DNA of 64,000 nucleotides from Podarcis erhardii (taxonomy: Eukaryota), in NCBI GenBank assembly GCA_964252035.1, contig OZ176205.1; one strand, 5' to 3'. This document shows, piece by piece, positions 6,908-12,126 of this stretch; the first letter of the stretch is position 1, and each line of letters starts with the position of its first letter. The translations under genes were made by a program, and so were the position numbers. The notes under the pieces were generated by a model. That model saw only the letters and a program-made list of their open reading frames with translations. It was not told the DNA's origin and did not search any database.

Positions 6908-8550
6908 ATATACTGTCCTCATAATCACAGTTAAATTAAACTGAGGTCCTAGTCTTCCAAAATATGTCATTCTTCCCCACCTAATTCCTCTAAAATACAT
7001 CGATATTATTTCTGTGGGAAAAAATCCTTCACAGATGGACCATTTTCAGTTTTCCAATGTCACAGTAACTCTCTTAGCAATCAGCAAGCATAAGAAAAAA
7101 AATTCACTTCCCATGGCCTCTTGGGATTCTGTGTACTTCAGGCACATCTGCTATGTATTTCTTTCCTTCTATATAGAAAAAAAGCCATCTGACCTAAGCT
7201 CTGGGAATATGCATAGTTACTCATTTTTTAAAAAGAAAAACAATTAGATGAAGATGAGAGTACACTCCACCAAGAGCATCTGACCTATTTATTGTAATTT
7301 GTAATATGTGTGATTATCTTAATTCCACACAGATTTTCAGTCATGTAACCTAGATCTGCAGACAGGCTTAACTAGCCATACTATGTGATCAGGGAGAGAA
7401 ATACCATTAATAATAGCACTTTCCAGTATACATACAAAGTGCTTTCAATTCTTAATTCATTTATCATCACAGCAAGCCTGTGAACAGGTATAGATTTAAT
7501 CTCTGAATAGGTTAAGTTTGGAGACATCTCACAGGGCCCCTTTCATAACCAAATACATCAAACCCTCAACTGCATTGCATTGGCCCAATGCGGAAAACAA
7601 TGAAACATTTGGGAACCTGAAGTAAATCGATTTGCTCTCTAACTCTAGAATACTGCTATGTGCAAATGTAGTCATAATTTTATACACATGAGGAAATAAA
7701 CTACTTGTAATTTATAAAGGGTGCTGGTGCTCGTACAATTGCTCATTTGTTTTCTTCTTCGGCCAATTCTGTATTTTAACACAGTGTGACCACAACTGAC
7801 ACAAGGGTTATGTTCCCAGATGGTTGCACATAAATGCAAAATTGTGCAAAGTCAGAATAACCCCCCCAGAACCACTCCCATCATCTGAGATGTTGAAAAT
7901 TCTTGGACAAGAGCCTCCAGAGCAAGAATTTCCTGCTCCCTTTCTATTCATTTATTAGTCCACATAAAGCTGTGATCACATAAGCAAAATCAGCATGTTG
8001 GGATCCTACTGTATATTCACTTACTATTGTTATATACGTAATTGGAAATGACCAAATTACTTGAATCGTTTATCTGTCATGCCTGTTGGATATTAAACAT
8101 AATATCAGAGGAAGAGAACTTTCCACCATTTTCTTACACTATATTCTTTGACAAACTGCAAAGCGACAGAGCAAGATGCACCAAGTTATATTTTAGCTGA
8201 GACGTATAATTTATTTATACACACAAGAATTATTCTTCATAGATTTTTGTCATGTATTTGATGATACAATGAAGTCCAGCTGCTACTGTGATTTAAAATC
8301 CCCAAATCCTATCTATCTTTTTGAAAGGAGCTTCTTAAAAAAACCCACAATTTTTACAGATTTCTACAACAGTAATGTACAAAAGCAAAAACAAAAATCA
8401 AAAAATGATTATATTATGATGAAAAACAAAAGTACATGAAGTCTTCTCAAACTTTGTACAGCAGAAAACAACAAATCGTGTCCTCCCTAAAAGAGGGCAC
8501 GTGTTATGGTGAGACCTGGAGACTGACCCCCTCTATTGTGGGTGGGTTTG

Positions 8551-8647
8551 ATTGGTTAGCCACAACATCCAATTGGTAGGTGCCTTGATGTTGGGTCCAA
8601 TCTGACCAATGGGGTGCAGTCCAAACAGATTGAGGGACCTATATATA
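8551..8647 (+). promoter_or_regulatory. Internal Pol II promoter of the YR retroelement (CCAAT cluster plus TATA)
   Basis: ATTGG at 8551, CCAAT at 8569, 8597 and 8606, TATATATA at 8640-8647, followed by a pyrimidine-rich GAGCTTCCTCTTTTGGCTC that is also conserved in the 59-kb relative. Confidence 0.6.
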
Positions 8648-9255
8648 CCCATGCATGTGACCCAGAGCTTCCTCTTTTGGCTCATGCATTCGGAACAAGC
8701 TAACAGCGTGTTCTCTGTGCAGCTAAGAGACTTACCTTTGATGGATCGTCTGACTGATTTCTTTCTAATTTTTATTCCCCCTTTTTTGTTATTGCTTTTT
8801 ATTCTTCCCCTCTTAACGGGGCTTTGCCCCTCTGGGGCTCCAGCCCCCGGGCGCTCCTGTTGTGGAGCTTGCTGCTGCTCTCCCCTTTCATTTTGGTGGT
8901 TGGTTTTTCTGGCTGCGGTAGCAGCCTTGTGCCTAATACATGACTTTGGGCAAGTGCGTTTATCGCTCCTTTAGCCCTGTCATTACTTAATTGGTTTGAC
9001 TGGTTTCATAGCAGCGAGAGTTCCCTCTCCCTGCCTTTATTGTGCTCCCTTTCATTTTAGCTGGGTAGTGTATTTGTTAAGGGCAGGAAAAACCTCTGTT
9101 TTGTTCTGGCCGCCATTTTAGGTCACAGGGTCTGGTTCTTCCTGACGAGTTTTGGTGGGAGTGCCATTTTGCATTGGCGGGAGTGCCATTTTAAAGGCCT
9201 GGGTCTTTCTGTGTATTTGTAATTAGCATTCCCTACACAAGACAAAAGGACCGTG

Positions 9256-10196
9256 ATGCCTATTAAAAGGAATCCCAGTCCTGCTCTCCCTTCTAAGAGG
9301 GTCATTAGGGGTCCCTCTCAGTCATTGTGTTCTGTGCCAGCCCCTGTGGTTCATCAGCCTATGCTGGATCGCTTGAGTGCAATTATGGCCAATATTGGCT
9401 CAGACCTTGCTGCCATGACTTGCTTTAATACAGAACTTGAGTTACTGGCCCAGCAGTTTGGGAGGCAGCCTGATGCTCAGCCTGGCCCCTCCACGTCCTC
9501 TACTGTTTTTGAGGCTCACGGTCCTTTGGATGTGAGCGAAGGGAGTGAGGTTTATGATCCTTCTGAGGCTTTGCTGTCTCCATTTCAGCCTTCCAGAATA
9601 CCAGACCCAGCTATTCCTAGGGGTCGTCCTAGGAGCATGGGTGCTATGGTGCAGCGGGCCTTTCGGTCAGGGCTGCCTTGTTCGCAGTCGGCACCCCAGG
9701 TTCTGGGAGTTCAGGGCTTCAGCCTGCACAGCATGTGGGAAGGGGAATTTTCTCCCAGTCAAACTCCTCACATGTTTTTAGTTCTGTGCACGTTCGGTCT
9801 GTTCCTTCGAGGGAGGCGCTCAGTGTCCAGTCTTTGGAGGAGGATCTCCCGGTACCTAGAGTGTGTTGTAGTGGTTAAGAGTCGTAGATTCGTAATCTGG
9901 GGAACTGGGTTCGCTTCCCCGCTCCTCCACATGCAGCTGCTGGGTGACCTTGGGCTAGTCACATTTCTCTGAAGTCTCTCAGCCCCACTCACCTCACAGA
10001 GTGTTTGTTGTGAGGGAAGGAAGGGAAAGGAGAATGTTAGCTGCTTTGAGACTCCTTCGGGTAGTGATAAAGCAGGATATCAAATCCAAACTCTTCTCTT
10101 CTTATTCTTCTTCAACTGGTGGCAAGCGGCAGAGGAGTCATCACTCCAAACGCAGGGCCAAGAGGTGGAGAGATGGCGATTCATCCTCTTCTACTG
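9256..10196 (+). pseudogene. gag/ORF1-like ORF of the YR element, disrupted by a SINE and probably one frameshift
   Basis: ORF track 9253-9972 (ATG at 9256) has a helical, coiled-coil-like segment LDRLSAIMANIGSDLAAMTCFNTELELLAQQFG and a Pro/Ser-rich linker. Its position is the usual gag slot in DIRS/Ngaro elements. A basic segment GKRQRSHHSKRRAKRW follows the SINE. Assignment is by position, not by a recognised motif. Confidence 0.55.
9860..10113 (+). mobile_element. Squam3-type (MIR/Ther1-derived) tRNA SINE inserted in the YR element
   Basis: A box TGTAGTGGTTAAGAG and B box GGGTTCGCTTCC. CORE-like CTGGGTGACCTTGGGCTAGTCAC...CTCAGCCCCACTCACCTCACAGAG. 3' GCTTTGAGACTCCTTCGGGTAGTGATAAAGC with (TTC)-rich tail. 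Confidence 0.8.
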
Positions 10197-10216
10197 GTAC
10201 GTCTTCTCAGATCTTT

Positions 10217-10442: not shown

Positions 10443-10473
10443 GTTTGGATGCGGCGCTGAGGTGCAGTTATTA

Positions 10474-11070
10474 ATGTTGTTTTGTTCATTCCTAGGTCCG
10501 CCTGCCCTGCACGTCTGGATAGTCGGGCACAGCATTGTCCACTGGGCCAGCATGAGGGCAGTGGAGTCTGGATTCGGATGCAGGCTCGGACTTCCCGGCC
10601 ACGTGTGCATCTCCTGGGTGTCCAGACGAGGAATGCATTGGGAGGAGCTTCTCCCGATGGTGCGGGCGAAGGTGTCTGCGGAAGGCACGCCTGCAGCGAT
10701 GATGGTGCAGCTGGGTGACAACAATTTACTGGAAGCTCCCAGCTTGAGCCTGTGGACCCGCATGCAGGAGGACTTGGAAGAGTTGAAGGCAGCTCTTCCT
10801 GGACTCAAACATTTTTGGTCGCAGCTATTGCAGCGACGTGTGTGTTGTGGTAGCCAATGCCCAGCTGCCACTGAGAGGGCCAGGAGGTGCGTGCAGAGCG
10901 CAGTGGCCAAGAAGGTTCTGGCCTTGGGTGGGACAGTGATCCATCACCCGGGCATTACCTTCCGTGATGCGTCCCTTTACAGGCTTGATGGGGTTCATCT
11001 GTCTGTGATTGGGAATGATTTGTGGCTGACCTCCATGTCAGCAGGGTTAAGGGATTGGTTACAGATGTGA
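10474..11070 (+). CDS. SGNH/GDSL-family hydrolase (esterase) of the YR retroelement; open frame 10330-11070, probable coding exon from 10496
   Basis: Block I VWIVGHSIVHW (Ser at 10531), block II SRRGMHW, block III VQLGDNNL, block V YRLDGVHLS (Asp 10987, His 10996). No stop or frameshift up to TGA at 11068-11070. Confidence 0.85.
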   Translation: MLFCSFLGPPALHVWIVGHSIVHWASMRAVESGFGCRLGLPGHVCISWVSRRGMHWEELLPMVRAKVSAEGTPAAMMVQLGDNNLLEAPSLSLWTRMQEDLEELKAALPGLKHFWSQLLQRRVCCGSQCPAATERARRCVQSAVAKKVLALGGTVIHHPGITFRDASLYRLDGVHLSVIGNDLWLTSMSAGLRDWLQM

Positions 11071-11391
11071 GTGGTTGGCAGCGAGTGCAGTGTTCGTGTG
11101 GCGGATAGGCGATAGGGATGGGGGAGCGGTCTCACCATCCCTATGTGAAGGGTATTCCGTTAAAGGAATCCATGGACTCAACTGGTTTGGTCAACCCCTG
11201 AGAGGGGGTTGTGCCCATACATGAGTCCAGGGGGGGCATCTGGGTGGTGAACAGAGTCTGTACCCAGCTTTTCATCTTCCCAGGTGTTCACCCTTGGCTG
11301 ACCTATGCTGGTGCCCTGGGTTAGCGCTGCCTGAAAGAGTGCAGGGAGCTAGTTGAACCAGAGCCTATGCAACCACTCACCTTCTGTAATC

Positions 11392-11397
11392 AATAAA
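11392..11397 (+). terminator. Polyadenylation signal of the YR element
   Basis: AATAAA within TTCTGTAATCAATAAAGATGTGTCCTAAATT. The same context is conserved in the 59-kb relative (rc TTCTGTAACCAATAAAGTTATGGCCTAAATT). A GT/T-rich stretch follows. Confidence 0.65.
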
Positions 11398-12126
11398 GAT
11401 GTGTCCTAAATTCTGCCAAAAACCCAAACTAAAATTTGAGTCACGTGTGATTTTATTTAGGGGGGAGGTCTCTAGGTCTGAACATGCAACAACAAATGAG
11501 CTCAAAAGAGCTAATTCTACCTTAAACATTAGATGTAACTACCTAGCTTCTTATATATTGATTATTTTCCAATTATTTAATATCTGCTCTAATTACATGA
11601 GTCTCAAAATGTAAGTTAGAGCTTCTTATGAAGACACAAACTATTCACTGGGTGAGGGTACTCTTCCAAGGAAGCTTTACAACTGAGCTTTGCTCCTGCT
11701 GCCAAATTATCTCTGCATTCCCTGTCTGTCTACCTCTTTGAGGCTGCCCAGATATCATCCTGCAAGGTTGCTTCCAATGTAGCTTGCCAGCTTCTGCTAC
11801 CTGCACTTCCTGTACTACTCACCCTCCAAATGCACCCAGCTAGGCAATTGTCTATATAACAATTTTAAAAGCCTTGTTCATGAGCACATCCACCACAAAC
11901 CAAACCATGCACCCTATGCGTACACTGCATTATCTACAAACCTGGTTTAGTCCTGAAGTAGCTCTGTGAACTTTAACATGCTTTCAGTAAGATAATTATT
12001 AGAATACATAGTCTTTGAAACACTGTCTTAAAGTACTGGTATTATGCTTGGTAAATGAAAACTCCCATTTTCCAACCTCCTGTACACTGAAATAACTAAC
12101 AAAGGAATGATAAATTTGTACGTTAC

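Follow-up and report, generated by a model that had tools for sequence, protein, structure and literature searches.

Short states of Ngaro-type tyrosine-recombinase retrotransposons in the genome of the lizard Podarcis erhardii

The 64,000-nucleotide stretch of Podarcis erhardii DNA analysed here (C6:59830001-59894000 of the 1.5-Gb genome; hereafter the window) contains two retrotransposon-derived units. The segment at 8472-11489 is an old, dead tyrosine-recombinase (YR) retrotransposon of the Ngaro group (SGNH type), in which a left repeat (A1), the open reading frames (ORFs) and a right repeat (B1) follow one another, and the unit near 59 kb, which comes from another Ngaro family, is a solo A2-C-B2, C denoting a spacer. 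Each window copy carries one A and one B. Both were probably cut, independently of each other, from full-length A1-ORFs-B1-A2-C-B2 insertions by recombination between direct repeats: B1 x B2 recombination would remove A2-C-B2 and leave A1-ORFs-B1 (the 8.5-kb copy), and A1 x A2 recombination would remove the ORFs and B1 and leave a solo A2-C-B2 (the 59-kb copy). These two exchanges had been proposed in a sequence-only reading of the window; the derived states that it called for are borne out, and homologous recombination is their probable source, although by-products of reverse transcription would have the same appearance. The window copies are ordinary fossils, and it is the surrounding family that is useful.

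A reverse transcriptase (RT) query taken from the family copy L045 gave 146 matches in the genome, and 40 of these loci were fetched and typed. B1-A2-C-B2 was found in 25, of which 20 also displayed A1; 12 loci end cleanly at B1 and three were undecided. In 20 young full copies, A measures 207-281 bp, B 385-452 bp and the unique spacer C, located between A2 and B2, 160-180 bp, and the direct A and B repeats within young relatives are 99-100% identical. The derived states exist as well: L129, in the A-ORFs-B state, has 99.6% identity with the full-length copy L130, cognate solos were found, and L140 and L143 differ in state at 95.9% identity. The ORFs of L130 matched zf-CCCH (weakly), RVT_1 (E 3e-13), Phage_integrase (E 0.002) and GDSL/SGNH, and the family copies L045 (RT) and L031 (YR) gave weak Pfam matches. 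The order gag-like, RT/RNase H (RH), YR is present in relatives, the window keeping just the start of ORF1 and the end of YR, and an SGNH ORF follows YR, which is a trait of amphibian-type Ngaro elements, with GDSL matches below the cut-off. The best named RT protein matches were from Podarcis muralis (at most 87%) and Zootoca vivipara, followed by other lizards and amphibians. The B1-A2-C-B2 structure of young relatives, together with this ORF set, upholds the Ngaro identity and the split-direct-repeat parent of the sequence-only reading.

That the elements are instead of the DIRS1 type, with inverted terminal repeats (ITRs) plus an internal complementary region (ICR), or remnants of long terminal repeats (LTRs) of an endogenous retrovirus (ERV) or Gypsy element, is very improbable. 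Short inverted matches, 11 nt long for the left end with B and 25 nt for the ORF end with the poly(A) region, would favour such an assignment, as would the LTR-like size of the 59-kb solo with its CCAAT, TATA-like box and AATAAA. However, relatives carry direct A and B repeats at 99-100% identity together with RT, YR and SGNH, have AA ends without a 4-6-bp target-site duplication (TSD) and gave no integrase or methylase match. ERV and Gypsy solo LTRs have TG...CA ends, a 4-6-bp TSD and an integrase-coding interior; here AA...CAA ends, no TSD and a YR interior were found instead, and no integrase domain of this kind was matched in the examined relatives. A DIRS1-like assignment was rejected because ITRs, an ICR and a methyltransferase (MT) were looked for without success and direct repeats were present instead. 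A search for a DIRS1 outgroup gave one broken match, LAP2alpha (DIRS1-like), with no RT nearby. A PAT-like assignment was set aside as well, since split direct repeats were present and MT was not: the RT/RH ORFs of L130, L146, L124 and L142 gave no Pfam match to MT/Dam, although a distant MT may escape Pfam. Both halves of the DIRS1/LTR alternative are refuted by the 25 young B1-A2-C-B2 copies and by L282, an old survivor with the same structure, and reading the short inverted matches as ITRs or an ICR was rejected because relatives including L282 show direct repeats. ITRs with an ICR, an integrase interior and 4-6-bp TSDs had been named beforehand as contrary signs, and none was seen. The structure of the relatives agrees with the Ngaro definition in the accessible parts of PMC9210276 and PMC4157794, the latter cautioning that structure alone can mislead in the classification of YR elements.

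The ends of the copies are uniform. AA is present at the right end in 91/92, 23/23 and 23/23 copies and AAA at the left end in 46/55, 19/26 and 13/19 copies; a single AA is shared at the B1|A2 junction, and no TSD longer than AA was detected at the examined ends. Such a short crossover core is as expected of a tyrosine recombinase, which would insert the full-length A1-ORFs-B1-A2-C-B2 at the AA core.

Three states (full, copies with the ORF end joined to a single B, hereafter ORF-B, and solo) occur side by side in young families, with 96-100% identity between them; the two old families, i.e. those of the window units, each contain both short states. Contigs C1-C4 carry 23 full copies, 26-29 ORF-B copies and 78 unpaired C|B sites, and all 10 of the C|B sites fetched were solos. 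The youngest family has four full, one deleted full, four ORF-B and nine solo copies at ≥99% identity, and two more young families show full:ORF-B:solo numbers of 3:3:2 and 1:2:0. In the 8.5-kb family, junctions were counted as exact 26-letter patterns, of which 530 were of the C|B type and 21 of the ORF|B type. All 30 matches to a natural solo query of this family were A-C-B with no B upstream, and one of two junction matches indicating a full copy was real, namely L282 (B1-A2-C-B2, with 89% identity between B1 and B2). The 59-kb family yielded 373 exact C|B matches, and three ORF-end-plus-B copies among four pattern matches. L178 is a solo whose insertion point lies within the B|A junction region of a different Ngaro family, a few bases in, and at L211 the tail of a B from another family comes after a B end, both being possible cases of nesting. 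The pairs L306/L307 and L044/L050 have a common flank or long 96% stretches and are probably segmental duplicates.

The sequence-only reading had paired the two window units, which lie 48 kb apart, as the complementary products of one kind of element. This pairing is rejected, since they belong to separate Ngaro families and their proximity fits chance. Their right ends align by blastn (66/88, E 4e-9, and 31/36), and no left-end match between them was obtained with that program. The 59-kb left end agrees with the 8.5-kb A at 123/199 positions and B with B at 259/359, and nine true cognate solos measured from the 8.5-kb family match it at 79-87% in A and 83-89% in B. In a B-region tree of 89 natural copies, whose bootstrap is not yet fully stable and whose clustering of labels is due in part to the choice of queries, the two families are split at 100/99 and have different young families as their nearest neighbours, and ORF-B copies nest among the solos within each. 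Genome-wide, at least 1224 exact C|B matches were found in four groups, so two units in 64 kb need no link. The chance of a solo per 64 kb is at least 5% from exact matches alone, and the true chance is higher because the solo in the window is itself missed by the pattern of its family. The 8.5-kb and 59-kb copies thus appear to be independent insertions.

Several marks in these families bear on their copying cycle. Four CCC tracts with 1-2-nt loops open spacer C in 23/23 young full copies (L112-L150); the motif has 10 loop variants, recurs in 53/59 further young units and has a background of one per 180 kb of ORF body. The perfect four-tract form is present in 0/22 copies of the 8.5-kb family and 3/17 of the 59-kb family, where imperfect or decayed versions were found. 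Judged from the letters, the minus strand of the tracts at the A2/C border would constitute a motif of the G-quadruplex type; alternatively, the tracts may represent a GC/CACCC box or a local hairpin. Deletions running from the A end into the body were found in L283, L293, L294, L295, L297, L114 and L121. In young copies, 6/6 A-capped deletions have their left breakpoint in the final 32 nt of A, with 0-5 nt of microhomology; a uniform model gives this a chance of 7e-12. The points at which these copies resume range from 0.9 to 6.8 kb, and in L121 A is followed by one base of C and then a 16-nt duplicate of the A end. Clustering at the A end as a general rule was rejected, since it fails in the old 8.5-kb family, in which left blocks end at 145 to >1400. 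The young copies L145 and L296 are 5'-truncated without any A cap. The simplest reading of these marks would be that a quadruplex in the minus strand imposes a strong stop on second-strand synthesis, the product then being transferred to the 3' end of the cDNA. It is conceivable, but on balance doubtful, that such a stop at the first base of C sets the end of A and that read-through or alternative closure yields directly inserted A-C-B and A-ORFs-B units, in which case the solos would be by-products of copying and not counterparts of solo LTRs.

The B repeat has a conserved fold, with two-sided changes in 15 of 44 predicted pairs. The ORF end (window 11054-11077) is complementary to 11370-11394, adjoining AATAAA, and the same holds in relatives. 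This pairing co-varies across families (cognate -24.9 versus non-cognate -18.4 kcal/mol; permutation p=1e-4, the rows not being independent), and no pairing was found between the end of C and the poly(A) segment. Occlusion of the poly(A) signal in B1 was rejected, the predicted AAUAAA exposure being not lower (0.53 versus 0.48; 13/21 with a wider span).

As for the origin of the short forms, we favour, with moderate confidence, recombination after insertion together with purging of long copies. The full state fades as family age grows, which speaks for recombination after insertion, and ORF-B copies appear older than full ones because they are more often broken (7/12 versus 2/25, p=0.002). C19, a 30-Mb contig on which ORF-bearing copies accumulate, holds 39 of the 146 RT matches where three are expected. 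In one clade, it carries no solos and seven ORF-bearing copies, versus 51 and 20 elsewhere (p=3e-4), and C-B2 after B1 is absent in all eight C19 loci checked, four of which are among the seven. ORF-bearing copies would have been purged from most chromosomes, leaving solos to dominate. Several observations weigh against this route. Solos are in excess although A is shorter than B and the A copies lie ~7 kb apart, compared with ~0.4 kb for the B copies: the ratio of solos to ORF-B copies is 78 to 26-29 on C1-C4; it is 9 to 4 for the youngest family and 25 to 1 for the 8.5-kb one, and selection would be required to account for this. Three solos are 100% identical to the A-C-B of a full copy, one 'broken' call per group is probably a motif miss (the ORFs being open), and no locus was seen in two states. 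C19 is probably the W chromosome and sets a bound on the by-product route considered next; autosomal solo density predicts ~1 solo there, so zero is unremarkable.

A distinctly less probable, though still appreciable, origin of the short forms is the direct insertion of reverse-transcription by-products as one-junction circles, through second-strand synthesis past the A2/C border or closure of the circle at B1 in place of B2; the recombinase would then insert these A-C-B or A-ORFs-B circles. In the youngest family, no form is more frequent than solos at 99-100% identity (9/18), and the break positions of all six A-capped deletions, together with the A-end repeat of L121, fit this route and show that products of aberrant copying are in fact inserted. 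Against it, each of the 25 exact B|A junctions in the young clade is followed by A-C-B, with the ORF end preceding 24, and none (0/25) is permuted or in tandem; C19, where long copies accumulate, has no solos of the tested clade; the L130 family contains one full copy, two ORF-B copies (one inferred from match lists) and no solos above 90% identity; and the apparent greater age of ORF-B copies points the same way. Recombination and by-product insertion may both act. Far less plausible is that solos are non-autonomous elements copied from their own A promoter with a borrowed B|A junction and borrowed enzymes, as was raised for SIRE by Ribeiro et al. (PMC6681497, accessible part). Solos do retain their promoter and poly(A) signals, and they fall into tight groups (97.5-99%), but shared source elements also give tight groups, a solo transcript would need the junction that it lacks in order to rebuild its ends, and the nesting of ORF-B copies among solos in both old families is contrary to self-copying.

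The limits of the 8.5-kb element were set from 20 relatives, each taken as a 10-kb stretch. The element itself had been recognized at 8502-11484; its limits are moved to 8472-11489 by the relatives' ends, the right end (11484-11489) being common to 20/20 and the left end visible in 10, at ~8472 in nine. No direct repeat of A or B was present in any of these 20 stretches, and self-comparison of the 8.5-kb element gave no internal direct repeat, in agreement with the earlier observation that neither end recurs inside it. The 10 relatives with both ends are 1.3-5.2 kb long, versus ~6.6 kb in a young A-ORFs-B copy. The A1 repeat (226 bp, 8472-8697, plus strand, as are all parts of this element) has an AAATCG terminus, a hairpin, CCAAT boxes (8569, 8597 and 8606) and a TATA box (TATATATA, 8640); these motifs and the AATAAA at 11392 sit where they had been reported. 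Cognate solos place A at 8472-8697 and B from ~11100 to 11489; they track A to 8697 and then switch to spacer C, which defines the A boundary, and a loose alignment ends at 8697 in contigs of two other organisms. A 5' leader (8698-9255) is common to the family copies L032 and L046. It is followed by the N-terminal part of the gag-like ORF1 (9256-10229), broken and interrupted, delimited by a DNA match to L032 and 38% identical to L130 ORF1 over 66 aa (E 4e-7). Within it lies a secondary SINE-like insertion (~9860-10107), which is not in L032 at the same place and is 89-94% identical to unrelated loci, with very high depth.

The ORFs expected between the ends survive as traces; most coding sequence has been lost by deletions, with the insert adding to the damage. 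A ~3-kb deletion measured against L045 (junction 10229-10237) removed the remainder of ORF1, RT/RH and the greater part of YR. A frameshifted C-terminal YR remnant (10238-10442) with HSFRIG...W...Y was recognized from translations and contains a 36-bp deletion at 10330/1; Phage_integrase matches of YR in relatives are below the cut-off. The SGNH-hydrolase-like ORF (10501-11070) is open, retains the GHS...DGVH motifs and is 47% identical to the L130 ORF over 223 aa (E 1e-70); the latter matches Lipase_GDSL at E 9e-5, below the cut-off, and a Pfam search with the window's own SGNH-like protein gave no match. Selection on this ORF is unsupported, at most 3/20 family copies being open. The structured B1 repeat (~390 bp, 11099-11489) carries AATAAA at 11392 and ends with CATGCAA, which host DNA adjoins. 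In contigs from other organisms, the left flank continues into A (four organisms), the ~3-kb deletion is bridged (three; B, C and D) and the right junction is bridged by at least 31 letters (two), B1 and B2 being indistinguishable there. The insertion and its damage are old, because contigs of other organisms carry the flank, the junction and the deletion.

The 59-kb unit had been described as 777 bp at 59203-59979 on the minus strand. It is a genuine solo unit, with limits corrected to 59198-59972 (-), but it is not exactly two ends joined: a spacer C of ~160 bp, absent from the 8.5-kb element, lies between them. A2 (59769-59972, -) was delimited by comparison with 30 copies that show the ends of the family, and it lacks the first ~11 nt of the left one. 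The spacer C (59608-59768, -), which elsewhere occurs only between A2 and B2 of full-length elements, is 72-85% identical to C of young full copies, with a C signature at 59624. B2 (59198-59607, -) contains AATAAA at 59300 and ends with GACACGCAA; this signal and the CCAAT boxes at 59863/59856 were in place as previously quoted. The unit is inserted within a LINE fragment, which we take from the translation of its flanks to be of the CR1 type. An uninterrupted copy of this LINE represents the empty site, and there is no longer duplication there. Dispersed SINE-like repeats, presumably of the Sauria SINE family, lie at 2554-2872, 6546-6872, 12758-12966, 34996-35322 and 63013-63350 of the window.

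A literature search for Ngaro plus Podarcis returned nothing. In the literature covered, outside which lay Goodwin and Poulter 2004, Vazquez 2000 and supplements, we found no report of a lacertid Ngaro, of the quadruplex motif, of the precise A-ORFs-B state, of A-end deletion breaks or of missing permuted copies. The accessible part of PMC5753468 does not mention Ngaro. Among known systems, the closest counterparts are DIRS-53_XT and DIRS-54_XT of Xenopus, which, in the accessible part of PMC9210276, likewise have gag-like, RT/RH, YR and SGNH ORFs, no MT and the order A1...B1-A2-B2; the lizard RT/RH is ~50% identical to unnamed Xenopus proteins. Xenopus Ngaro copies with lost 5' or 3' repeats were reported there by Gazolla et al. 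2021. In contrast, B is ~390-450 bp in the lizard and 152 bp in Xenopus, and no spacer comparable with the 160-180-bp C, no solos and no precise A-ORFs-B state are mentioned in the same part of that source. PAT-like and DIRS1-like elements share YR integration, and PAT also split direct repeats, but both carry MT, and DIRS1 has ITRs plus an ICR, neither of which was found in the lizard (PMC4157794 and PMC7192593, accessible parts).

The idea of solos is already published. For solo AB repeats of Ngaro elements in Cafeteria burkhardae, Hackl et al. 2021 (PMC8547959) proposed an origin by recombination and drew a parallel with ERV solo LTRs; in the accessible part of that source, neither an A-ORFs-B state nor a spacer is described, and there are no counts and no test of how the solos arise, whereas the lizard has at least 1224 C|B matches. 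SIRE of Trypanosoma cruzi consists of A2, an exclusive ~30-bp region and B2, i.e. the anatomy of A-C-B, and its origin and mobility were left open (Ribeiro et al. 2019, PMC6681497; also PMC12278014, as far as accessible). VIPER (PMC6681497, same part) differs from the lizard elements in having YR before RT, no SGNH ORF, a kinetoplastid host and a much shorter spacer. In annotation, solos could pass for ERV LTRs, being of LTR size and equipped with promoter and poly(A) signals; spacer C and the AA...CACGCAA ends identify them as Ngaro solos. Within the accessible literature, the copying cycle of YR retrotransposons has been tested just for DIRS-1. Young families in which all three states occur, with identities reaching 100%, and which bear marks of strand transfer make both this cycle and the origin of SIRE-type A2-B2 units testable.

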